Positions 19,198 through 42,767 of a DNA stretch of 64,000 nt are shown here, in pieces. Source of the stretch: Oligoflexales bacterium (GTDB lineage: Bacteria > Bdellovibrionota_B > Oligoflexia > Oligoflexales > JAPPIL01). Under the pieces are notes generated by a model. The model was not told the origin of the DNA. It did no database searches and saw only the letters and a list, made by a program, of their open reading frames with translations. The stretch spans positions 576,001-640,000 of the forward strand of contig OZ244057.1 of assembly GCA_965215515.1 (NCBI GenBank), in the 5' to 3' direction. Numbering within the stretch: position 1 is the stretch's first letter; every line of letters begins with the position of its first letter. Position numbers and translations under genes: made by a program.

Positions 19198-19381
19198 TAC
19201 CACCAGTAGTAGACCATTGCCGTAGCCTACAATCACATTCAGAAATTCACACAACCAAACTTGTTTGTTAAAACTGCAAGCTGATACATCAAAGTGGAAA
19301 ACAGTGCGTTAACTACCCTACCTTGATCGGTCGAGTGTGTGCAGGCTATCATATATTATATATCAGCTCTGGAGAAAATCA

Positions 19382-20570: not shown

Positions 20571-20602
20571 ATGCCACAAATATTTTCCTGCCATACCTCC
20601 TT

Positions 20603-22438
20603 TTATGTAATAAGAACCTCAACTGGTATCTGTTCCTGAATCACCTTTGGAACTATCGCTAGGCCGATCTGAGAGCATTTTTCGTATATCCAGTTACTGT
20701 TGCCGCTAGATGTAACTAATATAGATCGGGCATGTAATTTCATTTGTTCGACAAAATCAATGCCCGTTAATTCAGAGTCTCCTAACTCGTTGTCTATCAA
20801 CAGGACGTAGTCCTCATCATTTTTCTCTAATTTCAGAATGATCTTTCTAGCTGACTTTAAATCCTTTGCATACACAGTTTTGATGTTGTTTTTCTCAAGA
20901 TCGAATCCAGCAAATCTTTTTTGCCAAACCTTATAGACAAGTGGATCGTCATCAACCACTACAACAGTCATATTCGCTGCGAATGCTAAGCTTGCTGGGT
21001 AGAGAATGTTTTCCTCTGCTTGTGGAATTAAAATCTCAATTGTTACTCCCTTGTCTTCTGGTGACTTGATATCGAGTGTGCCACCCCATTTGCTAACATC
21101 TTCGATGGCAGAAGAAAGGCCAACCCCTGTGCCATCCTTCTTGCCAATGGTTACACCTCTCTTACCCACCTTTTTCAGGTTCTCTGTGGCTATGCCTTTG
21201 CCATTATCGGAGATGACAATAGAAACCATACCACCGTCTGTGCTAACACGTGTCTTCACAAACCCTGCTGAGTCAATAGCCTCAATAGAGTTCTTATACA
21301 GATTGATGAGATCACGCTTGAATTTGTTCGGCTCTACCTCACAGTAGGAAGCAAAGCCATCGCCATCACAGCTAATATCAAATTTAATATCCTTACCTTC
21401 ACACAACTTCGACAGTTTGATCTCTCCGACGATTTGATAAATTAGAGCACTAACATGACAAGATCGCAGAATATCCTTAGGCTGATCTACTGAAACCTTA
21501 CTCATAGCTGCCAATCGCATTTCGTCTTCCGTCAAACTGCCAATCTTCGGTATATCAGTAACTGTGTTGCTGATTCTTTCAAAAACGGATTTTATGATTC
21601 CAACTTGAGCATCTTTTTGATCTAAACGATCTACAGCTGACTCTCCAATTACAAGAGAAGCGATAACGTCATGCCTTACTCTTGTTGCTACTTTGGCTAC
21701 TTGTGCTTTAGAAATTGCTCTTCTCGCAATAGCTTCGTTGCTCTTGCTCCTCTTGATGTACTTAAGGAGAATGGTGTTAAATTTGAAAATCTCTGAAAAC
21801 CTATTCAGTCCGTGATTAGACTCCAGAAACTTTTCCTTATTCGCATTCTTATCCAGCTCTTCAGAGTAATCATGAAGGGGAGTAGAGACACTTCTAGCTA
21901 GCCTCAGTATGTGTAAATATAGGTAAAGAGAAATTAAGGAAAATAGGATGCAAATTAAAGTGGCGAACCCCAAAATAGTCAGCACAGGAATTTGATAACC
22001 GACGTGAAGTATGCCTACTTCGGTATCGTGATAATAAATAGGCTCTGAAACCAAAACATGCGGCATCCCATTGTTCCAGTAATAGCTCTTGTTATTTATT
22101 TTTGCTAACTCTGTGGGATTCAGTCTCCTGTGATCAGAGATATAAACCTTTCCGCTGGGTAAAGTTATCCAAACATTCTTAAAGTTTCCCGACTTAACCA
22201 GTGTCTTTACAACTTGCGTAGGTAAAAAATCTCCGCCTAAAGCTACTGGCTGGCTTAAGCTTTTGCTGACAACTCCCAACGTCTGCAAGAGCTGACTGTG
22301 GTAGTAATAAGCACCAAATAGTAAGCCAACAAGGAAAGTGCTGACTGCACCAACGATAAATATCTTCAGCGATAACGCCTTTGCTTTTTTCTTAGCAAAG
22401 GCAATTATAGATTGAGGTTCATTAGGCTGATTTTGCAT
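20603..22438 (-). CDS. Membrane sensor histidine kinase with C-terminal receiver domain (hybrid)
   Basis: Two TM helices, H-box VRHDV, N-box NLYKNSIEA, DNGKG, GTGVGL, receiver VVVDDD...LIDNEL. Confidence 0.88.
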   Translation of the reverse strand: MQNQPNEPQSIIAFAKKKAKALSLKIFIVGAVSTFLVGLLFGAYYYHSQLLQTLGVVSKSLSQPVALGGDFLPTQVVKTLVKSGNFKNVWITLPSGKVYISDHRRLNPTELAKINNKSYYWNNGMPHVLVSEPIYYHDTEVGILHVGYQIPVLTILGFATLICILFSLISLYLYLHILRLARSVSTPLHDYSEELDKNANKEKFLESNHGLNRFSEIFKFNTILLKYIKRSKSNEAIARRAISKAQVAKVATRVRHDVIASLVIGESAVDRLDQKDAQVGIIKSVFERISNTVTDIPKIGSLTEDEMRLAAMSKVSVDQPKDILRSCHVSALIYQIVGEIKLSKLCEGKDIKFDISCDGDGFASYCEVEPNKFKRDLINLYKNSIEAIDSAGFVKTRVSTDGGMVSIVISDNGKGIATENLKKVGKRGVTIGKKDGTGVGLSSAIEDVSKWGGTLDIKSPEDKGVTIEILIPQAEENILYPASLAFAANMTVVVVDDDPLVYKVWQKRFAGFDLEKNNIKTVYAKDLKSARKIILKLEKNDEDYVLLIDNELGDSELTGIDFVEQMKLHARSILVTSSGNSNWIYEKCSQIGLAIVPKVIQEQIPVEVLIT

Positions 22439-23246
22439 AAGACCTCAAGTCTTCATAGAGAATCTGACCTAGTTCAGTAAAAGTCACACCGTCGTAAGTA
22501 TTGAGTGATTTTATGAAATCATCTCTCAATGAGTTCAATACCTGATTGTAATACTTTTGCTCTTTCTTATCAGGGGTAACTTGGGTCAGGAATCTAACCA
22601 TAAAAGCCAAAGCAACCGTCGCATGGAAAGCTTGAATTGCTGGTCTATATGTTTTTCTAACGTAAGAAAAAACAGGAATGTCTAGTCCCTGTGCAATTAT
22701 TGGGTCAGCTGTCTGATAGATGTAAAGGCATTGATGTCCTAGCTCATGAGCAATGTTAATGGCAAGCTCTAGTTTCTTATTCGGCACACTCAGAAAAACG
22801 CTACCTTTAGCTAGGTGTGTGCTAAAGCCGATGCCAGCACTGCGACTCTTCAGCTTGCTGATATTTATCGGTACAATATGCTTTACCACTTCGTCAAACA
22901 ACACCGAAACATCTTGATTGCTACTTCCCTGAACCAAATATACCGCGGTCTTGAGTGTTTCAAGCTCTTGAGAAGAGATATTGCCCAACGAAAGATTTTT
23001 ATCGTCTTTACCATAGAGGTATAGCTGCTCAAGTTTTTCAGAGATATTTTTGTCTAGCAAGATACGATCGTCTATCTCAAAGAGTGTGCTCAAGTCATGC
23101 AAATGCTCTAGGTTACTCATCCAAGGGGAATAGACTTTGTAGTTGGTACCTAGGACAGAGTTAACCAGCCTCACGGTCTTTACCTTGAAAGTACAGCTCA
23201 ACTCTTGAATCTTGGCCAATCCATATTTTCCAAAAAACCACTCCAT
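22422..23246 (-). CDS. HExxH-family peptide-modifying enzyme (alphaKG-HExxH beta-hydroxylase-like)
   Basis: GFSTHLAKGSVFL, IAHELGHQ (HExxH) and SYVRKTYRPAIQAFHA, matching the downstream SxxR...RP...H motif of RiPP-associated HExxH proteins. Confidence 0.72.
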   Translation of the reverse strand: MEWFFGKYGLAKIQELSCTFKVKTVRLVNSVLGTNYKVYSPWMSNLEHLHDLSTLFEIDDRILLDKNISEKLEQLYLYGKDDKNLSLGNISSQELETLKTAVYLVQGSSNQDVSVLFDEVVKHIVPINISKLKSRSAGIGFSTHLAKGSVFLSVPNKKLELAINIAHELGHQCLYIYQTADPIIAQGLDIPVFSYVRKTYRPAIQAFHATVALAFMVRFLTQVTPDKKEQKYYNQVLNSLRDDFIKSLNTYDGVTFTELGQILYEDLRSYAKSA

Positions 23247-23254
23247 TCACACCT

Positions 23255-24765
23255 CTAGTGTAGAACCGTGCGTTCTAAAAAGAAGGTGATGCCACCGTCT
23301 TGAACACCAACACTCTTAACCCGTTTTGAATTAACAGATACTAGCAATTTTTTTTCAAACAAAGGCACTAGCCATACATTGTCCTGTACGTATTGGGATA
23401 GTTTTTTTACAGCAGCTACCCTCTGCTCAAGTGTGTTTGAAAGTTGCGCTTTGTTAAACAAGTCCTCATACTCCTTATCGTGCAAGGGGAAGTGCGGCCG
23501 CTTAGGTGATTTTTCCCCTCTAAGCAAGCCAAATAAGATCAACGGATCAGCAACACCAGCACCGAGTGAAGTGAGACGAAACAGTGTATCTTTGTTGTCA
23601 GTTGGAAAGAACTTAACTGTTGACCGCACCAGTTTGATTTTTAAACCAACCAACGCAAGTTGTTTCACCAGTTCTCGAATATAACCTCCGTATTTTTCAT
23701 CATCCAAACTTCCGTAAAAACTGGGATCTCATACTGTTTAGTTAAGTCAAGGTTAGGCACGCTTTTTAGCAATTTTTTAGCTGCTTCTGTGTCTCTAACT
23801 ATCTTTACCTCTGTGCGCCCCCAAAAGTGCTGGGCTAGAAATTCGTGAGCTGGGGTATATGTCTCAACACCTTCAGCAATTTTATCTCTGTCGATGGCGA
23901 TGTTTATCGCTTTTCTAAACCTTATGTCGGCTGCTATTGGGTTGTTGAAATTGAAGTTAATACTGGTGAGACCAGCAGCACGCTTTGATATCACCATATC
24001 CATATCTTTCCTAGGAACTGTCATTTCAATATCAGCATTACGCAACTCGCTTCCGTAGTACAGCGCAATTTCTTTTGCTGAAGTCACATCACCTACCTTC
24101 TCCAAAATGAGAGTTTTTGCATCTCGATTGTGAGCTTTGACTTTGTAGTTGCCAGCTCCGATCGGCACATCCTTCCAAGCCTCGTAGTCATCTGTGAAAG
24201 CTTCGATAGGAACGATAGAAAAATACGGACTAGCTAAGGAATGTAGAAATAAAGGGTTAGGTTTTCTCAGTTTTACGCTCAGAGTTCTATCATCAATAAT
24301 TTCTATACCGCTTACCTTCCCACTAACAAATTTTGTACTCCCTTCTACAGCTTCAGTCCCCTCTATTTCATTAAGGAAAGGAACAAAAAATGATCTGCGG
24401 TTAGAGTAAAAGCCACGAAGAATAGAAAACTCTAAGTCCTTTGCAGTAACTTTACGACCGTTATGAAACTCAAGTCCTTTCCTTATTCTCAAGATGTATG
24501 CTTCTTTTTCGTAATCCCAGTTGAAGGATTCCAGCAATCCTGGTTTCAGATCGTAAGAGTTCGATGTATAAACAAGCTGCCCTAGTACCGGAACGACAGT
24601 TGCTCTTAAAACATCGACTGGTACATCTTTGACAAAAGGAACTTGTCCTCCTGAGTCTAACTGAACACGAAGCACATCTTGTTTCGATGCTGTTGCTGAC
24701 TTGCTTTCAGATGTTGATACTACTGTCATGATAATTCCCCAAGTTGTTAGCATAAAATAGAGCAT
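23255..24765 (-). CDS. ABC family-5 (peptide) solute-binding protein, split by a 1-nt frameshift near 23716-23720
   Basis: LKPGLLES, FHNGRKVTAKDLEFS, PIGAGNY, RFRKAINIAIDR, VWLVPLF. Adding one T to a T5 run joins ORFs 23665-24765 and 23255-23707. Confidence 0.8.
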
Positions 24766-24766
24766 A

Positions 24767-24973
24767 TCACCTTACATCATGTTCATGTCGAGAGTGAACA
24801 ATCAGGTCTTCTCTCAATATTGGCGTTGTTCTTTCTTTCAGCTTCTCCAAAATTTTTTTGCTTGCCATAATGGGAGGAGCAGTATCTGTAACTACAGGAT
24901 CAATAGCCCAGCCTTCATTTGTCTGAGAGAACCCCAGTGCTGCCGCCAACATCAGTAGTGTTTTCCTGAACAT
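24767..24973 (-). CDS. Secreted 68-aa peptide, putative signal/RiPP precursor
   Basis: Strong RBS (GAGGAGG); signal-peptide-like MFRKTLLMLAAALGFSQTNEGWA; His-rich C-terminus VHSRHEHDVR; packed tightly in the operon. Confidence 0.7.
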   Translation of the reverse strand: MFRKTLLMLAAALGFSQTNEGWAIDPVVTDTAPPIMASKKILEKLKERTTPILREDLIVHSRHEHDVR

Positions 24974-24988
24974 GATACCTCCTCTTAA

Positions 24989-26395
24989 TCAAACACCTCG
25001 ATTAGAAACTAAGCCAAGGCTTTTGCGTTTATGTATGTAAGTCGTATATGGTAAATCTATCAAGCGAGCCGCTTCTACACGTTTTCCATCGGCAAGCATC
25101 ATAGCCTTTTCGAGGTAGTCACGTTCCAAACGATTTCGTATCTTTTCGACGAACTCCTTATAGGTAGGAAAATCTTCTGGCCTTTCGATTTTTTTGAGTG
25201 ATAATCTGCTGTCATTGTTTTCAAACAAGCTTGAGAATGAAAAGCAATCAATAACGTTACCAGCTAGGGCGTAGGCTTTGCGTATCTCACTACTCAATTC
25301 CCTGACGTTTCCAGACCATGCACGGGTCTTTAAGATTTCTATCGCGTCATCAGTGATACGTTTTTGTGAACCGGTTTCTAAATTCTTTTTTTCGACGATA
25401 AATCTGGCAATTGGCTCGATGTCTTCTTTTCTCTCTGCTAGGGATGGCACATGTATGTGAAATATATTTAGCCGATAGTACAAATCTTCACGAAAATTGC
25501 CCTTCCTCACCTCGTCGAATAAGCTTTTGTTGGTGGCAGCAATAGCTCGAACATCAATCTTTGTTGATGTATTACTCCCGACTGGGACAACTTCTTGCTC
25601 CTGCAACACTCGGAGCAACTTAACTTGCATGTCGAGAGGCATTTCTCCGATTTCGTCTAAAAATATCGTTCCAGAGTCAGCAGCAACAAATTTCCCCGTT
25701 TTGTTTCTGTATGCTCCTGAAAAAGAACCTTTGGTGTGCCCGAACAACTCACTTTCAACAAGTTCTTTAGGAATAGCTCCACAGTTTATAGCGATGAAGT
25801 TGTTAGATTTTCTTTGCGAGTTGTTGTGAATTGAACGAGCTACCTGTTCTTTACCTACACCTGATTGGCCAGTAATAAGGACATTTTCACTGGCTTTAGC
25901 GTATTTATATACCTCTGTGGCAACGTTTGCTAAAGCGGAGGAATAGCCACGCAGGTTTAATACTTTTTGAATCCACCTATCGTTGGCCTCTTGCTCTTCA
26001 TTAGAGAGCTTGCCATATTTTATTCTCAATGACGCTATTTCAGAGATAAGCAGGATAACCTCTTTGCTCTTCTGCTTCAGGTAGGTGTGATCAGCTCCAG
26101 CTGAAGTACACAAGACCGATTCCTCGTGAGATAAGCACGCCGAGAGGATGACCGTATGCATCATGGGATCAATCCTCTTGATCGCTCTCACTACTTCGTC
26201 GCCTTTGGTAGGCATATCGAAGTCCACTATTGCCATCCGAAACGGCGTATCGTCTGCCTTAGCCTGTTCAATGGCGCGCAGAGCCTGTTCTGGATCGGTG
26301 AAGGTCGCTAAAGGAATCTGTCTTTCGCTGAAGAGTGTCCTAGTAGCCGTTAGGAACATCTCATCATCGTCGATAGCTATGACCCTTGGATTCAT
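24989..26395 (-). CDS. Sigma54-dependent response regulator (NtrC-like: receiver, AAA+, HTH)
   Basis: AIDDD/VDFDMP receiver, GQSGVGKE, ELFGHTKGSFSGA, FLDEIGEM, FREDLYYRL, WSGNVREL; ATG at 26395 with GGAGG RBS. Confidence 0.92.
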   Translation of the reverse strand: MNPRVIAIDDDEMFLTATRTLFSERQIPLATFTDPEQALRAIEQAKADDTPFRMAIVDFDMPTKGDEVVRAIKRIDPMMHTVILSACLSHEESVLCTSAGADHTYLKQKSKEVILLISEIASLRIKYGKLSNEEQEANDRWIQKVLNLRGYSSALANVATEVYKYAKASENVLITGQSGVGKEQVARSIHNNSQRKSNNFIAINCGAIPKELVESELFGHTKGSFSGAYRNKTGKFVAADSGTIFLDEIGEMPLDMQVKLLRVLQEQEVVPVGSNTSTKIDVRAIAATNKSLFDEVRKGNFREDLYYRLNIFHIHVPSLAERKEDIEPIARFIVEKKNLETGSQKRITDDAIEILKTRAWSGNVRELSSEIRKAYALAGNVIDCFSFSSLFENNDSRLSLKKIERPEDFPTYKEFVEKIRNRLERDYLEKAMMLADGKRVEAARLIDLPYTTYIHKRKSLGLVSNRGV

Positions 26396-26447
26396 GGTTT
26401 CCTCCGTGCTCAAGTAAACATTTTCGTCCGCAAAAGGCAGAGTGTAG

Positions 26448-26462
26448 GCAAAGTTCGTGCCA
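26448..26462 (-). promoter_or_regulatory. Sigma54 -24/-12 promoter of the signalling operon
   Basis: Minus strand TGGCACGAACTTTGC is a consensus match about 50 bp upstream of the regulator ATG. Confidence 0.8.
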
Positions 26463-26524
26463 AAACATATAACATCCTTAAATCACAGATTTTTTATGCG
26501 GAAGGGGAAACAGCAGTCAAATCT

Positions 26525-26540
26525 CTACAAGATGTTGTAG
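26525..26540. promoter_or_regulatory. Candidate enhancer (UAS) palindrome CTAC-N8-GTAG
   Basis: ctacaagatgttgtag; related sites at 26714-26729, 30963-30978 and 30987-31002. Confidence 0.55.
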
Positions 26541-26818
26541 CCCTCCAAGCTCAACTCCTCTAAGCAGGTCAACAAGCTATCCAGATAACTGGAAAAAGAG
26601 CGTATGCGATCGATCTGGTTATGGCTACAACTTTTTTTGTGGTTTATGGCAAAATCAGATTTAATTACTGATAAATTATTAAAACTAGGGGACTTATTTC
26701 TGAAAGTTGATTGCAACAAAAAGTTGTAGCTGCTGGGTTGAGGGGGGACTACCAGTCATGGCTGTTCTCCTCTTCCGAGGAGCTTGCGGTGCGAATGACG
26801 TGGATGATGGGCTTGTAG

Positions 26819-26866
26819 CGCAATATGTAACGCAGTATGTAACGCAATATGTAATTGAGCATGTAA
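26819..26866. repeat. 12-bp tandem repeat (three copies plus one degenerate)
   Basis: cgcaatatgtaa cgcagtatgtaa cgcaatatgtaa ttgagcatgtaa. Confidence 0.85.
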
Positions 26867-26890
26867 TGAATTTTTTCCCCATTGAAATCA

Positions 26891-26938
26891 TTGACAAAAA
26901 TTAAATTCTCCTGCATAATATTCATGTAGTGCATGAGT
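26891..26938 (+). promoter_or_regulatory. Sigma70 promoter plus palindromic operator of abiEi-abiEii
   Basis: TTGACA-N17-CATAAT followed by ttcatg-tagtg-catgag. Confidence 0.65.
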
Positions 26939-26950
26939 TTTGTGCGTTAA

Positions 26951-27529
26951 ATGAGGAACGAGAAGTATTCGTTACTATACCAGATTGCCCTTGAGCAGCA
27001 GGGGCTGTTTACCGCCAAGCAAGCTAAACAGGCAGGCTTTGATGGGCGCAATCACCCATACTATGTGGCGAGAGGCGATTGGGAAAAAGAACACCGCGGG
27101 ATATATCGTTTGTGTCACTTTCCCAACGAGCCATCATCGGAATATACCCTCTGGTCTCTGTGGTCATGCAACCGGGATGGTGAGCCTCAGGGTGTCTACT
27201 CTTATGAAACGGCACTCAGTATTTATGACCTCACAGATCTAAATCCTGCTAAGATAACGATGACAGTACCGCTTGGCTTTCGCCGCAACGCACAGATACC
27301 CGGTATCCTTATTCTCCGCAGGGGAAAGCTTACATCAGCTGATTGGCAGGCGATAGAGGGTTACAGAGTTACCACCCCTGTTAGGACTTTGTATGATGTT
27401 ATTTTTTCCGACCATATACCTGAGGAGTTCATCTATCAGGCGGTAAGAGAGGGCTTCGCAAACGGACTATATCCCAAACGCAAGTTGCAAGAATACGGAA
27501 TACTCGACAAGGTAAAAAAATACCGATGA
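26951..27529 (+). CDS. abiEi: Type IV TA antitoxin, AbiEi family
   Basis: IALEQQGLFTAKQA, RGIYRL, SYETALSIYDL, RVTTPVRTLYD. Confidence 0.85.
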   Translation: MRNEKYSLLYQIALEQQGLFTAKQAKQAGFDGRNHPYYVARGDWEKEHRGIYRLCHFPNEPSSEYTLWSLWSCNRDGEPQGVYSYETALSIYDLTDLNPAKITMTVPLGFRRNAQIPGILILRRGKLTSADWQAIEGYRVTTPVRTLYDVIFSDHIPEEFIYQAVREGFANGLYPKRKLQEYGILDKVKKYR

Positions 27530-28386
27530 AATATAAATCGGCAACTGCCCTTCGACATGCAATACAGCACCGCCTGAGTTTAATCTCAGAAGGTAGGGAA
27601 GAGAGCGTGCAACGTCTGCGTCGGCATCTTGCCTTTGAGCGTTTGTTGGCAAGAGTCTTCAAGCAACCATCATCACCTTGGGTTCTGAAGGGTGGTTATG
27701 CTATGGAGCTGCGGCTACAAAGCTCTAGGACAACTAGAGACGTTGATCTCGCTGTATCGGAGGAGCGTCTGCTCACTTCAGGACACGAGCAGGTAGCAAA
27801 AGCTGTGCATACTAGGCTAATGGAATCACTAGCTGAAGATTTGGGTGATTTTTTCTCGTTCAAATTAAAGGAAAAGTACACTAAATTGTTTGCACCGCCT
27901 AGTGGTGGTGTCCGACTCTATGTTGATGCGATACTAGATAACAAACTGTTCTCCAGATTTCATATAGATGTTGGAGTTGGTGATGCCGAGATAATGCCTT
28001 TAGAAAACCTGACTAGTAGAAATCTGTTGGCCTTTGCCGGCATCGACTGCCCGCCGTTCCCATCTATTCCACGTGAACAGCATTTCGCTGAAAAAGTGCA
28101 TGCCTACACAACGCTGTATAATGGTCAAATGAGTTCACGCGTCAAGGATTTGATCGACATGGTGCTACTCATCCAAGGCGGCAAGATGGACAAAGTGAAA
28201 TTAGCAAAGGTGCTACCTCAAACTTTCAGCGTACACAAGAAGCATGCATTGCCACAAAAACTGCCAACACCACCTGCAAAATGGGCAACGAAGTTCGCCA
28301 CTCTTGCAGCAGAATGCCATTTGGAGTTGAGTCTTGAAGATGCCTTTGATCTCGTTAGCAGATACTACGATGAGTTGTCTACCTGA
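27526..28386 (+). CDS. abiEii: Type IV TA toxin, AbiEii nucleotidyltransferase
   Basis: WVLKGGYAMELR, RTTRDVD, AEKVHA, SSRVKDLID; ATGA overlap with the antitoxin gene. Confidence 0.88.
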   Translation: MKYKSATALRHAIQHRLSLISEGREESVQRLRRHLAFERLLARVFKQPSSPWVLKGGYAMELRLQSSRTTRDVDLAVSEERLLTSGHEQVAKAVHTRLMESLAEDLGDFFSFKLKEKYTKLFAPPSGGVRLYVDAILDNKLFSRFHIDVGVGDAEIMPLENLTSRNLLAFAGIDCPPFPSIPREQHFAEKVHAYTTLYNGQMSSRVKDLIDMVLLIQGGKMDKVKLAKVLPQTFSVHKKHALPQKLPTPPAKWATKFATLAAECHLELSLEDAFDLVSRYYDELST

Positions 28387-28416
28387 TCTATCTACTAGAT
28401 AGGATCAGTCGCATTC

Positions 28417-28592
28417 GTATAATATTCATGTAGTGTATGAATTTTGTGCATACAAGGCGGAACCATAGGTACTCGTTGTGTGCCAGATTGCCCTAGAGTA
28501 ACAGGGTCTATCTACTGCCAAGCGTGCTAATCAGGCAAGATTTGGTGGGTACAATCATCCATGCTATCTAGCGATGGGGCAATATGAAAAAA
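28417..28592 (+). pseudogene. Degenerate duplicate of the abiEi promoter, operator and 5' end
   Basis: Aligns by eye with about 26913-27088 (ataatattcatgtagtg...ccagattgccct...gccaagc); start codon lost, in-frame stop. Confidence 0.75.
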
Positions 28593-28704
28593 TCTGCTCC
28601 AACTGTTGACCCAGCTGGAACCGTGCTTACACTCCAAATGTGATGACCAACAAGCAACACATATTATGCTGTCGGCGGGTTGATAGTTGAACTGACGAGG
28701 AGTA

Positions 28705-29445
28705 TTGACAATGGACACAGAATCGAGCACGCATAGCAATGGGCAGGTGGTACCTGTCTTGGATGAAACGACGTTTGAGACGGTTTCAGCAACTATCCTG
28801 CAGGTAGTGGGTAACACTGTCCCTTTAGTAGGTGCAGTTTCTGGGCTATTTCTGCAGGAAATTTCTGGAAGGCGACTAAAACGATTCAAACTTTATATTG
28901 AGGTACTAAACAACAAGTATGAAAATTTGGAAAAGCTCTGTCACTCTCACGATACGAGACTAAATCTAGTAGAGGAAGGGGTTTACCACGCGACTAGAGC
29001 CTACTCAGAGGAGAGGATAAAGCACATTGCCTCTATCATCGCTAATGGCATCTCTGGCAAGGGAAAAGAGGAAACTGAAGCAAGTCGAATGCTGAAAATT
29101 TTGGCAGAGCTGGAGGACGAGCAGATTATCGTGCTGGCTTACTACTTGGATAAGAACAGGGATAACGAGGAGTTTTACAATACTCACGCCAATGTGTTGG
29201 AACAAAAGATTGACTTCATCGGTGGTGGTATTGAGCGATCAGACGAGGCTACAATGCAGGAAACAGCCAAGCTACAACTTGTTCGCCTCGGACTGTTGCA
29301 GCATATTTTCAAAAAGCCACGCGAAGGCGAAATTCCTGATTTCGACCCGAAAACTGGCATGATTAAAGCATCGGGTTACATGCTGACTTGGCAAGGCAGC
29401 ATGTTTTTGCGCTACCTCGGTCTTGCTGAACCAGGGGAACTTTGA
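28705..29445 (+). CDS. Hypothetical protein (Abi-alpha/DUF4393-like architecture)
   Basis: VPLVGAVSGLF amphipathic N-terminus, ILAELEDEQIIVL and a C-terminal wHTH-like LVRLGLL...LTWQGSMFL. Confidence 0.5.
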   Translation: MTMDTESSTHSNGQVVPVLDETTFETVSATILQVVGNTVPLVGAVSGLFLQEISGRRLKRFKLYIEVLNNKYENLEKLCHSHDTRLNLVEEGVYHATRAYSEERIKHIASIIANGISGKGKEETEASRMLKILAELEDEQIIVLAYYLDKNRDNEEFYNTHANVLEQKIDFIGGGIERSDEATMQETAKLQLVRLGLLQHIFKKPREGEIPDFDPKTGMIKASGYMLTWQGSMFLRYLGLAEPGEL

Positions 29446-29458
29446 GGGTTATGTACAC

Positions 29459-30817
29459 ATGAAAAAAGACAAATCAGGCAAAAGATATGCTTTCCCCTTT
29501 GGAATATTCCAAAGAGGAGTGATTGACATTACACTCAGCAAGTGGGAAATTCTCAAGCAATTGACCTTCATTCAGAAAATTTTGTTTCTGCTGGGACTTC
29601 GACACGAGAAAAATATTGAAGACATGGAGCGTAGAATCACTAATTTAGCTACAAGAATTTCTCATGATGAAATTTTTGGTTACGACTCTGATTTTGGAAA
29701 GCAGTTGTTCACAATCAACATGGAAGTTGGCAAGAGAAATTGGGATGTGGAAAAGAACCTTACACCTAAAGATTTAGAAAAAGCTGATGCCATCGTAGAC
29801 TCCAATCGTATAATAAGAAATAGGTTTATCGGTTTAGTGTCAGAGCCTCCGCTAAACATGTCTCTTATTGATGCTGATCCAGAAGTATGCCTAACCATTG
29901 TTCCAATGACCCCTTATGTGCTAGTGCAAAGCATTCGCTATTTTATTGATGTAAATCCGCACTACACATTTTCTGCCATTAGACAATCAAACCATCAGTA
30001 CAAGGATGAATTGATCGCATATCTCTACGAGTTGCTTGACCTCCAAGCAAAAAATGCCATGAGCTTGCTGGGGTTCTTAGAATTGTGTCACACTATCCAG
30101 CAAAAGAAGGGGTATTCTTCACTTATCAAGGAGGAACAGGACGCTTCCGAGAAAGCCAACTTGATTATAATTAGACTAAAATCATTTATAGAAAAAGTTA
30201 CAGCATTTGTAGGGGTGATATACGGGGACACTTCTGTAGATTCTTCTAATAAGCACAAATCACGTGAGAAAAAAATTGCCAGCCATATCAGAGAAAGCCA
30301 CAAGAAGCACCCTTACTACCAACAACTCACTGCTTATATTAAACGAGAAAACTTTGCAGAGCTTGACAACTATAGAACTGGTATTTTGCACAAAAAGGGG
30401 TCATCTGAAATGCAGCCCCATAGTTTTGTGGGAAAGAAATTTGACGAAACCCCTCTCAGAAAACTTCTTGGGGTAATTATGGAACACCGACAAAGGAGTT
30501 CAACAGCATTGATAAGTGCATTAGCGATTATGACTGACGAACTTGTAAACATGGAAGCACCGGAAAAGCGTTTCGTGATGTTTATGGATCTGCTTGAACT
30601 CACAAACACGCTATATCCTGACAAAAAGGAAAAGCAAATCAACATGCTTCCTGCTATGTTGCCAAAGCTTTTTATCATGTGCGAGGAGTATTTTGGGGTT
30701 GACGAGCCACAAGACGCTGATCAGTCAGCAGATGTTGAGAAGTCAGCACAAGCTGGAGAGCAACATGAGGGTAAGCAACAGACAGACAAACATCCACAAG
30801 GGGACAAACAGTCGTAG
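29459..30817 (+). CDS. Hypothetical protein with a HEPN-like RxxxxH motif
   Basis: All-helical-looking ORF containing LDNYRTGILH. Confidence 0.5.
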   Translation: MKKDKSGKRYAFPFGIFQRGVIDITLSKWEILKQLTFIQKILFLLGLRHEKNIEDMERRITNLATRISHDEIFGYDSDFGKQLFTINMEVGKRNWDVEKNLTPKDLEKADAIVDSNRIIRNRFIGLVSEPPLNMSLIDADPEVCLTIVPMTPYVLVQSIRYFIDVNPHYTFSAIRQSNHQYKDELIAYLYELLDLQAKNAMSLLGFLELCHTIQQKKGYSSLIKEEQDASEKANLIIIRLKSFIEKVTAFVGVIYGDTSVDSSNKHKSREKKIASHIRESHKKHPYYQQLTAYIKRENFAELDNYRTGILHKKGSSEMQPHSFVGKKFDETPLRKLLGVIMEHRQRSSTALISALAIMTDELVNMEAPEKRFVMFMDLLELTNTLYPDKKEKQINMLPAMLPKLFIMCEEYFGVDEPQDADQSADVEKSAQAGEQHEGKQQTDKHPQGDKQS

Positions 30818-31065
30818 TAGCAAAACAACCATGCACACAACTAGTGGTACCCCGTAACTTGTTCTACAATATTTCACACTTTTTCCCATGAAAACTCAAA
30901 GTTTTTCTACCAATTTTCTCATCACACTATTCTGTTGAAATCATTGAATAGCCTAGTTTTCGCTACGAAACGTTGTAGATACATTTCTACGACACCTTGC
31001 AGAAGTTAATACTTAAAAAATTTCTTTCCAAGCAGTTCTAGTCGTTTAGCTAAAAAAGTAAATTT

Positions 31066-31081
31066 TGGCACACTCCTTGTA
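31066..31081 (+). promoter_or_regulatory. Putative sigma54 promoter of the ICE backbone
   Basis: TGGCACACTCCTTGTA (-12 GC is GT, one mismatch), with tandem CTAC-N8-G(T/C)AG sites 65-100 bp upstream. Confidence 0.55.
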
Positions 31082-31122
31082 ATGCCTCTCTTTGCAAACG
31101 TTAACACAGTGAGGGAGAACAC

Positions 31123-31594
31123 TATGAGCAACGCGCAAGGAAAGCCATGGCTGAACGAGGATGGCAGCACCAAGTCGGACGAGGAGTTGAGGGAGATTAC
31201 CCCGAACTGGGGGGAGAGTATTTGGGAAAAATACCTCTCTACATTTGAGGTTAAACAGAAAGAAGATTCTGTTTTATCACCTTCTATAGTGGACACCTTC
31301 TCCGCAGAGGAATGTGCCGGATTGTTATTTTCCCTAGCAAGTGAGGAGAAACATCTCTGCCTCAAGGTTGCGCTCAATGTCTGTATCCGTGAGCTTTCCC
31401 CCAGACAAAGGGACATCATTATTGGCTACTACTGGGATGGTAAAACGGTCAATGAAATGGCTGCAAGCATGGGGATCAGCACACAAGCTGTATACAAGGC
31501 TATGAGAGTGGCTTTAGCAAAGCTAAAGGCAAGCCTGACAAGTGGTTCGATGCAGAAGCGGATGATGGCAGCAAGAGAAATACTGGCCTCCTGA
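31123..31594 (+). CDS. Sigma70 region-4-type HTH regulator
   Basis: LSPRQRDIIIGYYWDGKTVNEMAASMGISTQAVYKAMRVALAKLK. Confidence 0.75.
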
Positions 31595-31689
31595 GGTTTA
31601 CAAAAGGTTGGTATTTAGTCTTTTTGGTTGGTTATTTCCCTATTAGTGAGGGGACAATTTTTTTAATCACCAATTTAGGAGGTCACATA

Positions 31690-31941
31690 ATGCCCGCAAA
31701 ATTTTCAGTTGAAGATCAGATTATCGCTAGGTCATTGTCGAGAAAGCTGCGTCCCAGACAGCGGAAGGCGATTGTGCTGCGATTTTGGTACGAGTACTCG
31801 ATTTTTGAGGTAGCCAAGTCCCTAAGGGTAAGCTGGGAGGATGCAGACAGAACCATTAAGGACGCACTGGCCAAGCTAAAGCAAGATTGTATGGAGCAGC
31901 CGCACTTCTCAAGAGCCTTGAAACTACCGTTTGCCGCATAG
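31690..31941 (+). CDS. Small sigma70 region-4-type HTH protein
   Basis: LRPRQRKAIVLRFWYEYSIFEVAKSL...ALAKLK; GGAGG RBS before ATG 31690. Confidence 0.7.
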   Translation: MPAKFSVEDQIIARSLSRKLRPRQRKAIVLRFWYEYSIFEVAKSLRVSWEDADRTIKDALAKLKQDCMEQPHFSRALKLPFAA

Positions 31942-31955
31942 TGCTAGGAGGGAAA

Positions 31956-32306
31956 ATGAAGGTGTTTGATGTTTTTAAGGGGCGTAAACGCAGAAGTGGC
32001 GACATAATCAAGATTCGTAGTGTTGGCTGTGGCTACTATAACCGCGCTACCAACACTTACGAGCTACAGATCAACGGGTTTGCCCCGAACAGCCACATCC
32101 TCAGGCCAGAGAAGGACATCGGAGCGAATAACGACTATGTGATCTATCACAAAAGTCCCTATGCCAGAGGCTTGCAGCAAGTCGGTGTCGGTCATCTCAT
32201 GAGCGGAGACAACGCAGGTCTAGTGCAACTTGAGTGGGACATCTATGGCAACACACACATCTACCTCAACCTGTCACGGGGTAAAACAGAAAGGAGGACA
32301 GCCTAG
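31956..32306 (+). CDS. Hypothetical ICE backbone protein
   Basis: AGGAGG RBS before ATG 31956; beta-rich ORF in the operon. Confidence 0.55.
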   Translation: MKVFDVFKGRKRRSGDIIKIRSVGCGYYNRATNTYELQINGFAPNSHILRPEKDIGANNDYVIYHKSPYARGLQQVGVGHLMSGDNAGLVQLEWDIYGNTHIYLNLSRGKTERRTA

Positions 32307-32359
32307 TCTAAATCTACGCTGGGAAGATTGTAAGGGGAAGTTCAGCTTAAATCTTAACA

Positions 32360-32716
32360 GTGAGGTATCGTATGCAAAACAAAACCAAGAACGAAACTCT
32401 TACTCTTGGTTGGCTTGATCCGAGAGACAACAGCGTCAATCACGCCGGAGTTAGCTTCTACAACCCTACCTACGGGGAGTATCTGCTGAAGATTGACGAA
32501 GAACCAAGCGAAAAACAATACTTCCTTAAACCCTCCTCTAGTGAGGGCGAGCACATTACCTACCGCATGGAGCTTGTGCTTAAACGTAAAGACGGACGCT
32601 TCCTAAAACGTCAACGTGTTGGCACTGGATATAGCAACGCAGAAACAGATGGCAATGTGCTTATCAACTACGGCTCGAAATTCAAAACTCTAGTGCTTTA
32701 TCTGAGAAATAAGTGA
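32360..32716 (+). CDS. Hypothetical ICE backbone protein
   Basis: Operon position; composition similar to the preceding ORF. Confidence 0.55.
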   Translation: MRYRMQNKTKNETLTLGWLDPRDNSVNHAGVSFYNPTYGEYLLKIDEEPSEKQYFLKPSSSEGEHITYRMELVLKRKDGRFLKRQRVGTGYSNAETDGNVLINYGSKFKTLVLYLRNK

Positions 32717-33003
32717 ACTCAAAAAAATTATGGGTAGTTTATCTTTCATGGTTTGCTGACACAGCTCTAGCGCAGTTTTGGGGTGGGAGTGGCTTTGAGG
32801 GTAAGATTAGATCGTTTACCGACAACCTGATGTCAGTCATTTTACCGGCGGTTGCCATACTTGGCTTACTTTACGCAGCTATGCTCGCTATCAGCGGTGA
32901 TGAAGGTGCAAAAAAACGCATGATCCTTGTGGTGGTGGCAAGTGTGATCGGATTTCTTGCTCCCCTGATCATTCGCTGGTTTCAATCAGCTGCTGTTGGA
33001 TGA
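32713..33003 (+). CDS. VirB2/TrbC-like pilin
   Basis: Signal peptide ending ALA plus two hydrophobic helices; directly before the virB3/virB4-like genes. Confidence 0.65.
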   Translation: MNSKKLWVVYLSWFADTALAQFWGGSGFEGKIRSFTDNLMSVILPAVAILGLLYAAMLAISGDEGAKKRMILVVVASVIGFLAPLIIRWFQSAAVG

Positions 33004-33322
33004 CATGATGGGAATCAACACTTCAGAGGTGCAGCGAAACTTAGATGCAAGGTTTAAGATCGGGGGTATTGAAGCCCTCGATCTACTGATAGCTCTGATA
33101 TGCAGTGCGATTATGAATCTGTTCTTCGGTGGCACAGCACTAGAGATTCCTCTAGTGCTTGGTTGTCCAGCACTCATTCTTGCGGGTTTTTACTTCGGTA
33201 AAAGGGGAAAACCAGAAAAATTTATGGTTCATCTTATTCACTTTTATTTAGAAGCGGGATTTTTCTCAGCAGGAGCAGAGCCAACAAAGTCTCTGCAAAT
33301 GCGAAGGAAGATTTATGCGTAG
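32996..33322 (+). CDS. VirB3-like membrane protein
   Basis: Two TM helices, about 105 aa, overlaps the VirB4 start. Confidence 0.6.
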   Translation: MDDMMGINTSEVQRNLDARFKIGGIEALDLLIALICSAIMNLFFGGTALEIPLVLGCPALILAGFYFGKRGKPEKFMVHLIHFYLEAGFFSAGAEPTKSLQMRRKIYA

Positions 33323-35738
33323 CCTCGCTAGTGAATTGGAGTTCTGGCACTTCGATGAAGACCTAATGGTTTTTAAAGATGGCTCACTCGGTGCAGGTTT
33401 TAAGCTGGCAGGGTTTGATATTACCTGTGCTACAGAGCAGGCTATCAATCAGATGAACAGAGGGCTGGAAAATTTGTTGATCTCTGCTGATGAGGGAATG
33501 AGGCTGCAAGTGTTTTACAAGCTGACACCGAATGTAACTGATCTTATAGATCAGCATCAAAAACTGTCTGGTTCTGTTACTGGTAATTATCAGCGAATTG
33601 CTGCTGCTCGTGTTAGGTTTTATCTCCAAAATCAAACTGACAAGAAATACTTTGTGCCTAACATTTTCTTTTTCATCCGTAGTAGACCCTATGCACTGAA
33701 AAAACAAAGTTTATTCGCATCAGATAAACAGTTTCAGCGGATTTCAAGAGAAGAGTTTGCTCGAAGGAAAGAGAGATTTCTCCGCTCTGTAAAGGGTATA
33801 GAGTCAGGTCTTGCTTCAGCGGCACTTGCTCCTAGCAGACTTAAACACGAGGAATGGTTCAATCTCATATTTGAATACCTGAACCTTGATCGTACAGAAA
33901 GGATCGGAGCAAGTTGTTACAAAGAGCCGCAAAGCTTTCTCAATCCCTCGGTCAGTGAACAGCTCACATTGACTGATTTCATTTGGGATAAGGACGCGAT
34001 AACGCTCGGCACATACATGTTTCGCACCATCACCCTTGCCACGCTGCCTGAAGGGCAGACATATGCAGCAATGGCTAACATGTTCGCTGCCGTGCCGTTT
34101 CATTTTTGGCTGAGCCAGTCCGTTCATCTGCTAGATCAGGCAAAGGCAAGGTCATCGCTGGAGATGAAACGCAGGATAGCACACTCAATGGCTTCGGGTA
34201 GCAAAAATGTTAGTGACTTAGATTCAGAAAACAAACTCGGACAGATCGAAGGCTTACTGGAGAATTTACTAGAGGGTTCAGAAAAGCTCGTATCATCTGA
34301 TTTCAATGTCATCATCTGGGGAAGAACCAAAAGTGAGCTAGACGATAAGACAGATGAAATCCTAAAAACCTTTCGCACATTGAATCAGGCAGAAGGGTTA
34401 CAAGAAACACTAGCAGGTAAAGAAGCTTTTTTTAAATCTATCCCCGGTGCTTGTCTAGGGATGCGGCACAAGAAGATGAAGTCCAGCAATGCTGTGCATC
34501 TGATGCCTGTCTTTGCTAGCTGGGCAGGTAATCCTAAACCAGTGTGTCTGCTGCCGACAAGAGATGGGCGGTTATTCTCGCTCGATCCCTATGCAGACCA
34601 CTTACCAGCTTGGAACGGTATCGTATTCGGCAGCTCAGGCAGTGGTAAAAGCTACACGATCGTGCAGTTGATGGCGATGTTTTACGGTAAGGTAAGCAAA
34701 GAAAACAGACCACGTATTGTCTGGATTGATAACGGTGCATCTTCAAAAAGACTAGTTGAGATATTAGATGGTGAGTTTTTAGACCTCGATTTGAACTCAG
34801 GTCTGTGTCTTAACATGTTCGATTTGAAAGAAGGAGAGATAACACCAAGTCCAGAGCGGATTCGTACAGTCTTAGCTGTCCTTGAGATGATTCTAAAAGA
34901 CGAAGATAAAAAAGCTCTCGGTAAGCGGGAGAAAGCTTTACTGGAAGAGCAAGTGCATAAGGTCTATGAGGATGCAAGTGGAAAGATACCTACTTTGTCA
35001 GATTTGAAAGAGTTGTTGGATAAACACAAAGATGCACAGATACGAAAGTTCGGTGAAATACTCTACAGCTGGACAGGAACATCAGCTTATGGACAGATGC
35101 TCGATGGACAAACCAACGTCAAACTCTCTAAAGACCTTGTTTCTATAGAGGTGCAGCATCTGAGCAACTATTCAGATCTGAAAGATGTCCTATTACTTCT
35201 TCTGACCTCTTACATTCAAGATGTGGCATCGTCTGATATTGGCAGGGAGTATCTGCTGATCATTGATGAGGCGGAGCGTCTGTTTCAGTCAGAGTTAGCA
35301 AGGCAAGTGGTAATTACCTGTTATCGCACTTGGCGCAAGTTCAAAAGCGGCATCTGGTGTTTGAGTCAGAACTACAAAGACTTTATGGCAGATAAAGCTC
35401 TTCGTGATGCTCTGATGACCAACACGACTAGCGTTATCATTCTGCGGCAGAGCAAGATTGATTGGAGTGATTTCAAAAAGACGTTCGATTTTAACGACAC
35501 ACAAGTGGAGCGTATCAAAAATCTGACAATCAAAAAGGGAGAATACAGTGAATTTTATTATCTGCAAGATGAGAACGAAGCGATCTTACGGCTTGTTCCT
35601 GAACCATTGAGTCACTGGTTTTCTACCTCAGATGCTAACGACAAGACCATGATTGCTAGTACAGAAAAACAGAATCCGAGTATGAGTAAGTTAGATGTTC
35701 TTAAATTGCTGGCTTCTCAACCTAAAAACAGGGGGTAA
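33315..35738 (+). CDS. virB4: VirB4/TraC-family T4SS ATPase
   Basis: GSSGSGKS Walker A, IDNGAS, IIDEAE Walker B, RTWRK, SQ motif; 807 aa. Confidence 0.85.
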   Translation: MRSLASELEFWHFDEDLMVFKDGSLGAGFKLAGFDITCATEQAINQMNRGLENLLISADEGMRLQVFYKLTPNVTDLIDQHQKLSGSVTGNYQRIAAARVRFYLQNQTDKKYFVPNIFFFIRSRPYALKKQSLFASDKQFQRISREEFARRKERFLRSVKGIESGLASAALAPSRLKHEEWFNLIFEYLNLDRTERIGASCYKEPQSFLNPSVSEQLTLTDFIWDKDAITLGTYMFRTITLATLPEGQTYAAMANMFAAVPFHFWLSQSVHLLDQAKARSSLEMKRRIAHSMASGSKNVSDLDSENKLGQIEGLLENLLEGSEKLVSSDFNVIIWGRTKSELDDKTDEILKTFRTLNQAEGLQETLAGKEAFFKSIPGACLGMRHKKMKSSNAVHLMPVFASWAGNPKPVCLLPTRDGRLFSLDPYADHLPAWNGIVFGSSGSGKSYTIVQLMAMFYGKVSKENRPRIVWIDNGASSKRLVEILDGEFLDLDLNSGLCLNMFDLKEGEITPSPERIRTVLAVLEMILKDEDKKALGKREKALLEEQVHKVYEDASGKIPTLSDLKELLDKHKDAQIRKFGEILYSWTGTSAYGQMLDGQTNVKLSKDLVSIEVQHLSNYSDLKDVLLLLLTSYIQDVASSDIGREYLLIIDEAERLFQSELARQVVITCYRTWRKFKSGIWCLSQNYKDFMADKALRDALMTNTTSVIILRQSKIDWSDFKKTFDFNDTQVERIKNLTIKKGEYSEFYYLQDENEAILRLVPEPLSHWFSTSDANDKTMIASTEKQNPSMSKLDVLKLLASQPKNRG

Positions 35739-35740
35739 CA

Positions 35741-36436
35741 CTGCAAAAGAAAGCTATTGGATTGTTACTAGTCTTTTCTCTTACTTCCTCTCCTGCACAT
35801 AGTTTCTGGGGAGATGGGGGTGCAGGGTGGGTACAGATACCATATCTGGTGAAAATTCTACTTGAGAACTACAAACGCTATCAGCAACTCAAGCTGATGA
35901 TGCAGCAAGCAAGAAGATCGGGTGATTATTTTAGGACAGTTCATCAAGGGTTAGAAAACATCACAGGTCTTTTAGACAGCTTGCCAATCACTGATCAGGG
36001 GGTACTTAAGGATTTACGAAGTTTTAACGGGTCACTCAAAACCATATCGCAAATCTACGGAAAAATACCCAGATCACCGGAAGAAGCACTGCATAGGCTG
36101 CATGACCAAACCGCGGCTGAATCACTACAGATGGTGAATTCATTTAAGGATTACTCGAAGGCACAGGAAAGCAACTCGCAATCGCTCAGGATTCAGAGCC
36201 AATCAGCTTCACCTAAAGGAGCTGCAAGGGCTACCGCGGTTTCCAATGCGATGATTTTGGAAAGTATCAATCAACTGATCCGCTTGCAAAGTCAAAGCCT
36301 GAAAATGCAAAGTGAGCAGCTAGCTATGTTGAATAGGCAGGATAAGAAAACTATCGCCTCCTATCAGGAGGTTGATAAAAGTATAGGCAGTGCCTTCAAG
36401 AATTTCAAACGCCAAGAAAAATTCGTAAAATTTTAG
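35741..36436 (+). CDS. VirB5/TrbJ-like exported protein
   Basis: Signal peptide and Gln-rich helical body. The frame extends to CTG 35741 after a GGGGG RBS-like run (ORF-track start 35762). Confidence 0.5.
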   Translation: MQKKAIGLLLVFSLTSSPAHSFWGDGGAGWVQIPYLVKILLENYKRYQQLKLMMQQARRSGDYFRTVHQGLENITGLLDSLPITDQGVLKDLRSFNGSLKTISQIYGKIPRSPEEALHRLHDQTAAESLQMVNSFKDYSKAQESNSQSLRIQSQSASPKGAARATAVSNAMILESINQLIRLQSQSLKMQSEQLAMLNRQDKKTIASYQEVDKSIGSAFKNFKRQEKFVKF

Positions 36437-37303
36437 ATGTTCGACCAGTTGGTAGGGGTAGCAAAAGATATTCGGGGGGAGACACTCGAACTTTACTGGT
36501 TACTTTTAACTCCGTTGGTGCTGTTACTCATCATACTGGAGTTTTTCAAGTATCAGAAAGACAGTATAGATGTTTTTGATATTATCAGACGAGTTGTCAT
36601 CTCGATGGTGCTGCTGTTTTCTTTTGAATATACGATCAATGCCCTTTCTACGATTGGGGATGGGATCGTTAGCAAAATAGATAAGACCGCTGATGTTTGG
36701 GATGTATTAAAAAATCTGGGGCCGAATTACCAAGACTCTTCCAGTGGGCTATTTGATATAAGAGGACACATTCTTTACACACTGGCACTGCTTTCTTATC
36801 TCATCGCCTACTTAGGATTTTTTGTCACCGATGCACTTGTTCACTTTGTCTGGATCGTTCTGTATACGGTATCACCCCTGATGATTTTAGCTTACGTTGC
36901 TAAAGCAACAGCTAACGTGACTGCGAACTTATACAAAGGGCTAGTTAAGGTAGTTATCTGGAAAATTATGTGGACGATTCTTGGTGCGCTGCTACTGAAA
37001 TTAGCCATGACCCCCCAGACAGGAGAGGACATGGAAGGCTACTTAGTAGCGATGATTACTAATCTGTGTATTGGACTCAGTATGCTTTTTATTCCTATCG
37101 CAACTCGTTCACTAATCAACGATGGATTGGAGAAGGCAGCATCAGCATTAGCCGTTGCTCCAGCAATAGCTGCGGTGAATACAGCAAAGGTCTACACCAA
37201 GAAAGCGGCTAGACGAGGTTCTGCGAAAGCATCGGGGACAGAACAACCAACTACTAAATCACAGGATAATCCTGTCAGAGAGAGTGTCGACAGGTTTAGG
37301 TAA
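36437..37303 (+). CDS. VirB6/TrbL-like polytopic membrane protein
   Basis: Five or six TM helices; SPLMILAY motif; operon position. Confidence 0.65.
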   Translation: MFDQLVGVAKDIRGETLELYWLLLTPLVLLLIILEFFKYQKDSIDVFDIIRRVVISMVLLFSFEYTINALSTIGDGIVSKIDKTADVWDVLKNLGPNYQDSSSGLFDIRGHILYTLALLSYLIAYLGFFVTDALVHFVWIVLYTVSPLMILAYVAKATANVTANLYKGLVKVVIWKIMWTILGALLLKLAMTPQTGEDMEGYLVAMITNLCIGLSMLFIPIATRSLINDGLEKAASALAVAPAIAAVNTAKVYTKKAARRGSAKASGTEQPTTKSQDNPVRESVDRFR

Positions 37304-37340
37304 GAGCACATAAATCAATTATTTTGGAGGAAACATTGCT

Positions 37341-42727: not shown

Positions 42728-42767
42728 ATTCAAATGTGTTGCGCTGTAACATTGAAAGGAGCGTGCT

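Follow-up and report, generated by a model that had tools for sequence, protein, structure and literature searches.

Shared palindromes and sigma-54-type promoters suggest one activator for a signalling operon and a conjugation operon in a partly broken mobile element of an Oligoflexales bacterium

What controls the conjugation genes carried by the low-G+C island in this Oligoflexales genome? The window analysed here is a stretch of 64,000 nucleotides (bases 576001-640000 of a single-contig genome of 2,180,710 bases). Its G+C content is 47.7%, compared with 52.6% for the genome, and an island with 40–50% G+C spans from about 3 kb to about 45 kb of the window between flanks of 53–57%; of the ends or attachment sites of the element, only this low-G+C island was seen. 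Within the island, a signalling operon on the minus strand (20603-26395), which begins with the gene for a sigma-54 activator, diverges from a conjugation operon on the plus strand (31124-44482). An initial annotation of this DNA had proposed that the activator drives both operons, giving peptide- and density-controlled transfer of an integrative and conjugative element (ICE). On comparative grounds, we consider it fairly probable that one activator serves both its own promoter and that of the conjugation operon through shared palindromes. Peptide or cell-density control of transfer is not supported.

All five motifs named in the initial annotation were found again, in position and in sequence. 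The activator promoter, TGGCACGAACTTTGC (26448-26462, minus strand), is an exact match to the -24/-12 consensus TGGCAC-N5-TTGC, with the GG and GC dinucleotides of a sigma-54 promoter 10 nt apart. The genome has 22 such exact matches, and this is the only one of them in the window. It ends 52 nt from the activator ATG at 26395, which is preceded by a GGAGG ribosome-binding site. Across the genome, 3 of the 22 consensus sites were placed upstream of an open reading frame (ORF) by an ORF-based intergenic/genic sorting that is too strict. The conjugation-operon promoter, TGGCACACTCCTTGT (31066-31080, plus strand), is sigma-54-like: the GG and the spacing are present, and the single mismatch is at the last base, where the -12 element has GT and not GC. 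It ends 43 nt from the ATG at 31124, a start codon that is preceded by GAGGGAG and backed by the alignment of homologues. A consensus scan of 30820-31124 (plus strand) found no sigma-70-like promoter. The genome encodes RpoN (PF04552 match, E 3.9e-63, open frame of 500 aa).

Each promoter is accompanied by palindromes, to which no strand is assigned, that are candidate enhancer sites. On the activator side, the perfect 6-4-6 palindrome CTACAAGATGTTGTAG (26525-26540) is separated from the -24 element by 62 bp. On the conjugation side, the imperfect palindrome CTACGACACCTTGCAG (30987-31002) is the proximal candidate at a nearly equal gap of 63 bp, and CTACGAAACGTTGTAG (30963-30978) is the distal one at 87 bp. 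A second, imperfect palindrome on the activator side, CAACAAAAAGTTGTAG (26714-26729), lies 251 bp upstream of the -24 element and is a weak and doubtful enhancer candidate. The enhancer spacing of 65–100 bp claimed earlier is thus about right for three of the sites and fails for the fourth.

A motif scan of the genome placed these sites well away from background. CTAC-N8-GTAG occurs at 18 sites in the genome and three in the window, versus 0.47 expected, a count that was reached in 1 of 100 shuffles. The extended form CTAC[AG]A-N4-TTGTAG is found at only two places in the 2.18-Mb genome, both of them sites cited in the initial annotation and one upstream of each promoter. With the relaxed form C[TA]AC[AG]A-N4-TTG[TC]AG there are seven genomic sites, four of which fall within this 4.5-kb stretch. 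Among 50 TGGCAC-N5-TTGN sites in the genome, two have such a palindrome no more than 170 bp upstream, and they are exactly these two promoters. The palindromes are not a product of chance. Additionally, CTACAACTTTTTTTGTGG at 26625-26642 is similar to the 26714 site read in reverse complement; the two make up a loose inverted pair, about 90 bp apart, in the interval from the activator promoter to abiEi.

To place the two promoters among related loci, we used the first regulator of the conjugation operon as a query against all 131 species genomes of the phylum and matched it in 22, the window's genome included. One genome-contig scan and one metagenome scan were added, and counting near-identical or overlapping loci once gave 22 loci with usable upstream sequence. 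A six-sequence regulator alignment was too diverse for scanning and a four-sequence alignment was used. The genome-contig scan returned one true relative, L002 (the same contig as G049), and the metagenome scan returned L042/L043 and one short fragment. No relative was found in viral contigs scanned with the regulator alignment, and tblastn of the regulator against plasmids gave only two partial matches, both ordinary sigma factors.

An intergenic TGG[C/A]AC-N5-TTGN site stands at the head of the operon in 7 of the 22 loci. Besides the window these are G051 (TGGAACAAACCTTGT), G009 (TGGCACGCACTTTGT), G088 (TGGCACGAAGATTGA), G054 (TGGCACGGAGTTTGA), G058 (TGGCACGCGAGTTGA, ahead of three small genes and then the regulator) and the metagenome locus L042/L043 (TGGCACGTATCTTGG). 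The promoter of the window can be aligned with that of G051 through TTGG-AC---CCTTGTAAT. Six of the seven promoter loci, window included, have a PF00158 activator gene in the available flank, versus none of the other 15; because the loci are kin, this contrast is descriptive and not a test. The activator gene is divergent with genes between in the window and G051, directly divergent in L042/L043, divergent and 1.4 kb away in G054, co-directional and immediately upstream in G088, and about 8 kb upstream in G058. The seventh locus, G009, is on a 5.3-kb contig that ends 1.45 kb upstream. In G088 a whole triad of SBP_bac_5 protein, kinase and activator sits directly upstream of the promoter, and its binding protein shows no tblastn similarity to that of the window; in L042 a hybrid kinase is found in the activator's operon.

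The other 15 loci, 12 with 4 kb of upstream sequence and three with 336-1748 bp, have no intergenic promoter-like site. One match in G055, TGGAACACGCCTTGT, 2 kb upstream of the regulator, was rejected as chance, being inside a 250-aa ORF. Another in G046, TGGCCGTGGAGTTGA, agrees at seven of nine consensus positions 115 bp upstream in a flank of only 356 bp and is at most a candidate. Among the weaker regulator matches (L010, L020, L021, L023, L025, L026, L033 and L034), no site with at least eight of nine positions occurs within about 1.5 kb upstream. At several of the 15 loci a divergent gene abuts the upstream region of the regulator, and its product looks by eye like a small helix-turn-helix (HTH) repressor.

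The 15 loci without a promoter include elements of the same-genus genomes G047 and G048 and two sister elements of the window's own genome, at about 1,630,700-1,644,500 and at 125,000-138,400. The sister backbones (type IV secretion system (T4SS), coupling protein, relaxase and recombinase) are 44-91% identical to the window's in amino-acid sequence, depending on the segment, and their first regulators are 51-55% identical. Their front end consists of a divergent gene and then a different upstream region; neither a sigma-54 motif (over 4 kb) nor an activator gene (over 20 kb) was seen there, and there is no strong PF00158 match nearby and no such palindrome near the regulators. At least two fragments of the regulator gene also occur in the genome, at 1,160,418 and 1,757,035.

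The base that follows TTG at -12 differs between the two kinds of promoter. In the seven operon promoters it is T in three, A in three, G in one and C in none (window 31080; L035 3841; L038 1463; L039 8450; L040 2325; L060 2965; L042 4383). The recognisable activator-gene promoters, those of the window and of G051 (TGGCCCCACCTTTGC), have TTGC in both cases. Upstream of the L042 activator gene no sigma-54 motif is visible by eye. In L040 (2150-2185; G054) and L042 (4225-4262), the sigma-54-like promoters are preceded at about 95-140 bp by long, imperfect inverted repeats, which are candidate enhancer sites of other specificities.

If the palindromes serve the activator, their type should go with it, and comparison of three genomes suggests that it does. 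The closest activator in the phylum is that of G009, which is 52% identical over its full length and 47% over the C-terminal 137 residues; with the C-terminus no other genome matches better than E 7e-9. It adjoins a homologue of the binding protein (44% identity). The G009 conjugation promoter is preceded by two perfect tandem palindromes, CTAACAA-N2-TTGTTAG, the proximal one at a gap of 62 bp, which have in common with the window palindromes the outer CTA...TAG and the inner ACAA/TTGT. The region-4 regulators of G009 and the window, however, share only 28% identity, and G009 has secretion genes of another type (TraU, T2SSE ATPase). In G051 the situation is reversed: identity with the window is 49-50% for the regulator but only 32% for the activator. 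The motif repeated there is another one, TTCGCCAC with the palindrome CGGCGAAAAGTCGCCG, and occurs in the promoter regions of both the activator and the backbone. Thus, palindrome type appears to follow the relatedness of the activator and not that of the element's region-4 regulator.

The domain content of the signalling operon is in keeping with such a circuit. The activator (468 aa; 24989-26395, minus strand) has a receiver (PF00072, E 4.1e-10), a sigma-54 interaction AAA+ domain (PF00158, E 3.7e-68) with an AAA lid and, at the C-terminus, a weak HTH_8 match, and is among four strong PF00158 matches in the genome. At the loop of this AAA+ domain, the G009 activator reads GSFTGA and the other five aligned activators read GAFTGA. 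Another activator of the window's genome likewise has a GSFTGA loop. The remaining genes of the operon are all on the minus strand. A 68-codon ORF (24767-24973) without a family match has an N-terminus that is signal-peptide-like by eye; it has no counterpart in the G009 operon, where there is no room for one, the activator and binding-protein genes overlapping there. The gene for an SBP_bac_5 periplasmic binding protein (23255-24765) is split by a frameshift into ORFs of 366 aa and 150 aa at a T5 run near 23700; in eight homologues a single frame, of about 500-560 aa, runs through both parts. Membership of SBP_bac_5 names no ligand. There follow a 274-aa protein (22422-23246) of no family with a HELGH (HExxH) stretch, and a 611-aa histidine kinase (20603-22438) with HATPase_c. 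Because it has a weak C-terminal receiver, the kinase is probably a hybrid. Neither a signal synthase nor an Hpt protein appeared in the Pfam scans of the operon proteins, and no search was aimed at them.

Several observations weigh against one activator serving both promoters. The C of the -12 GC is missing from the conjugation-operon promoter, and a review counts the -12 site among the main factors that determine promoter recognition and the formation of a stable closed complex (PMC5095919). One-mismatch sigma-54 matches in the window are at chance level (8 versus 5.9 expected; at least 8 in 26 of 100 shuffles), and therefore this site cannot stand on sequence alone. The C-terminal Fis-type HTH of the activator (PF02954, HTH_8; E 5.6e-4) scores 20 bits, under the Pfam cut-off of 22, and the GAFTGA loop reads GSFSGA (residues 223-228; window 25733-25750). 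A T-to-S loop variant of PspF keeps binding to one of two sigma-54 region I fragments, according to PMC3467059. The kinship of the loci means that the contrast of six of seven with none of 15 overstates independence. In G009 the activator and the conjugation genes are on different contigs, and upstream of the activator gene there is no recognisable sigma-54 promoter or palindrome; as no sigma-54 motif is seen by eye before the L042 activator gene either, autoregulation is not general among the relatives. The words shared in G051 are not significant by themselves (a word of at least 11 in 91 of 500 shuffles). Lastly, three genes of the circuit or element are broken in this copy, those for the binding protein, the coupling protein and the recombinase. 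By comparison, the claim that one activator drives two promoters is well supported, through the linkage of activator with promoter and a site type that follows the activator, although this stops short of proof.

In the circuit that we infer, the periplasmic SBP_bac_5 protein would be the likely ligand sensor and the activator, an NtrC-class response-regulator enhancer-binding protein, would probably be phosphorylated through the (hybrid) histidine kinase of its operon. It would then bind the 16-bp CTACRA-N4-TTGYAG palindromes, centred about 71 and about 96 bp upstream of the two putative sigma-54 promoters, and open both by ATP hydrolysis. At its own promoter, with the consensus -12 GC, this would result in positive feedback. 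The promoter at 31066-31080, with -12 GT and predicted to be weaker, would drive the two sigma-70-region-4 regulators and then the T4SS, coupling-protein, relaxase and recombinase genes. The non-C base at the -12 of output promoters, compared with TTGC at activator promoters, suggests lower strength for the output promoter than for the autoregulatory one, and this together with positive feedback may create a threshold.

How much of this circuit could still work in the present copy is a separate matter. According to the most serious rival, the wiring is real in design but an inactive relic here: the sensor and the transfer machinery would have decayed and the promoters would no longer control transfer. 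We regard this as a real possibility, to which we give rather less than half of our confidence. The conjugation operon, all of it on the plus strand, begins with genes for two small regulators of 156 aa and 105 aa (31124-31941) that have only a sigma-70 region-4 HTH. A T4SS with a VirB4-class ATPase, as expected of an ICE, is present: a pilin (32713-33003), a VirB4-like ATPase (33315-35738; TraC_F_IV and P-loop_TraG domains) and a TrbI/VirB10-like protein (38650-39585), with unnamed genes between these members. The Replic_Relax-family candidate relaxase (40999-41796, E 3.2e-7) is intact. The coupling-protein and recombinase genes are not, which favours the relic. The FtsK/SpoIIIE-type coupling-protein gene (39578-41036) is split by a frame change between 40393 and 40416, while its paralogues in the two sister elements run through 459-460 aa in one frame. 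The serine recombinase (43058-44482) is in three frame-shifted pieces (43058-43372, 43500-44033 and 44027-44479) and lacks residues 317-441, about 125, of its 597-602-aa sisters. With the coupling-protein and recombinase genes broken, the element is probably unable to excise or transfer alone, and ICE transfer, which the initial annotation had envisaged, is doubtful for this copy.

The split binding-protein gene also favours decay, as do Logan contigs of four public DNA runs, which show no differences from the window over 24100-31743 and 40291-41506. A search for RNA runs returned none. However, the four runs come from one study and are possibly the source of the assembly, and thus not independent; the contig pieces bridged none of the recombinase breaks, nor the binding-protein break, which lies outside the compared stretch. 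The single-base frameshifts could still be assembly errors. Additionally, the two promoters, the palindromes, the activator and the kinase are all intact, as are most T4SS genes, and the sister elements, with apparently intact coupling-protein and recombinase genes, might supply functions in trans; complementation by them is possible. The circuit in this copy may be a relic, or it may depend on the two sister elements.

A second rival takes the palindromes for operators of another DNA-binding protein, for example the element's region-4 HTH regulators, and not for enhancers of the activator. Palindromes of 16 bp would suit any dimeric HTH protein, and two region-4 HTH proteins are encoded directly downstream. 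However, the site type tracks the activator and not the HTH regulators, which is the main argument against this rival: palindromes are similar in G009, whose activator is close and whose regulator is distant, different in G051, where the regulator is the closer of the two, and missing near the sister regulators at 51-55% identity. The sites are also enhancer-like in lying 62-96 bp upstream of the -24 elements with matching gaps. We consider operators of this kind unlikely. Least likely, and very improbable in our view, is that the 31066 site is not a working sigma-54 promoter and that transcription of the operon starts at a promoter of some other class that went unrecognised, only the activator promoter being real; the missing -12 C, the chance level of one-mismatch matches and sister elements that run the same backbone from a front end without a sigma-54 motif speak for it, but in seven loci the operon is headed by the -24 TGGCAC at the exact spacing from TTG, together with activator genes, the window and G051 align through this site, and the scan saw no sigma-70-like site.

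The DNA between the two promoters is consistent with a later insertion. An AbiEi/AbiEii pair (26951-28386, plus strand), the first gene encoding an antitoxin/regulator and the second a nucleotidyltransferase, has its own sigma-70-like promoter at 26891-26919; PADLOC identifies both genes (E 6.1e-59 and E 5.7e-85) and Pfam agrees. Downstream, two cargo genes encode proteins of 246 aa and 464 aa (28705-30817, plus strand) with no supported family. The HEPN label once given to this cargo is not supported, with one sub-threshold Pfam match (E 0.0038) and no PADLOC match. The pair and the two family-less genes are bracketed by copies of a 13-bp direct repeat, TTGAAATCATTGA, at 26882-26894, overlapping the -35 of the abiEi promoter, and at 30935-30947 (both plus strand); a shared word of at least 13 occurred in 3 of 500 mononucleotide shuffles. 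The repeat could be the scar of an insertion. What occupies this slot also varies by relative: a DHBP-synthase-like gene and a 309-aa gene in G051, two unknown genes in G054 and an unrelated 403-aa gene in G009, and next to the enhancer sites the window and G009 do not share a conserved gene. The flanking repeat, together with slot content that differs in every relative, fits insertion into a formerly single divergent control region. The view of the initial annotation that the AbiE cargo arrived later is therefore likely to be correct.

Two further observations concern the AbiE genes themselves. After abiEii, at 28419-28595, the abiEi promoter and the 5' end of the coding region are repeated in decayed form: this copy shares about 80% identity with 26914-27090, has a TATAAT of its own and seems to be what is left of another AbiE module in tandem. 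The abiEi promoter is closely preceded by short direct repeats, ATGTAAC/ATGTAAT (26815-26870), that may be AbiEi operator sites. Further cargo in the island precedes, in this order, the signalling operon, the AbiE pair with its two genes and the conjugation operon: a DruE-like helicase (14950-19197, 1415 aa; PADLOC E 5.4e-160) and an RmuC-family gene (19323-20570). With these inside it, the island has defence cargo as well. An Rfam search of 20000-33000 at E up to 0.1 gave no matches.

The proposed circuit has counterparts among known systems. In NtrB/NtrC control of the glnAp2 type, tandem enhancer sites lie upstream of a sigma-54 promoter. The likeness extends to a response regulator with REC and AAA+ domains and a Fis-type HTH, which is only weakly matched here, to tandem palindromes about 70-110 bp upstream of the -24/-12 elements and to the own operon being among the proposed targets. 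Here, however, the target is a conjugation operon and not nitrogen genes, on the sensor side stand an SBP_bac_5 protein and what is probably a hybrid kinase, the -12 of the target promoter departs from consensus and the loop is GSFSGA, not GAFTGA. The Vibrio LuxP/LuxQ-LuxU-LuxO quorum-sensing relay also joins a periplasmic binding protein, a hybrid kinase and an NtrC-class sigma-54 activator in one chain. It differs in its Hpt protein and synthase, which did not turn up in the Pfam scans described above; the binding protein here is of the SBP_bac_5 family, and the output is a protein-coding operon and not small RNAs.

The switches known to gate ICE transfer range from repressors and SOS signals to quorum-sensing regulators, RpoS and bistable cascades, and RapI-PhrI of ICEBs1 and PrgZ/PrgX of pCF10 are known transfer switches. 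To our knowledge, none of ICEclc, ICEBs1 and pCF10 uses sigma-54 or an AAA+ enhancer-binding protein. They have in common with the present element that a long transfer operon is controlled by a regulatory front end encoded on the element itself, and in the pheromone plasmids an OppA-like SBP_bac_5 protein likewise takes part in sensing; here, in contrast, the binding protein is in an operon with a kinase and not with a transporter. The ICEclc switch, as described in a 2017 ICE review (PMC5812530), employs RpoS as sigma factor with MfsR/TciR. Control of an ICE or of plasmid transfer by sigma-54 or an enhancer-binding protein was not found in the full-text literature, in which subscription journals are mostly uncovered and an earlier description is possible. 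In the 2017 review, 'RpoN' occurs once, in the reference list and for a cargo regulon (PMC5812530); a 2025 survey of sigma-54 regulons (PMC12316311) contains no word that starts with 'conjug', nor 'type IV secretion' or 'plasmid'.

The nearest comparison is within the same genome, where the sister elements share the backbone and the first regulator and differ in the front end. One 2.18-Mb genome with one backbone family and two front ends is a clean comparative system, and the consistently non-consensus -12 is a testable point of promoter design. Because sigma-54 promoters are silent without an activator, a front end of this kind would give very tight, signal-dependent control of transfer. A broader proposal, which we hold as tentative and rather doubtful, is that conjugative elements of this phylum have interchangeable front ends, one of them a sensor-kinase and sigma-54-activator cassette with its own enhancer sites that acts as a feedback-plus-threshold switch. 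As the same activator and palindrome type occur on two unrelated backbones, VirB4-first in the window and TraU/T2SSE in G009, such a cassette would move between elements as a unit. If this is true, the strong autoregulatory promoter and the weak output promoter would together form a switch that commits only part of the population to transfer.

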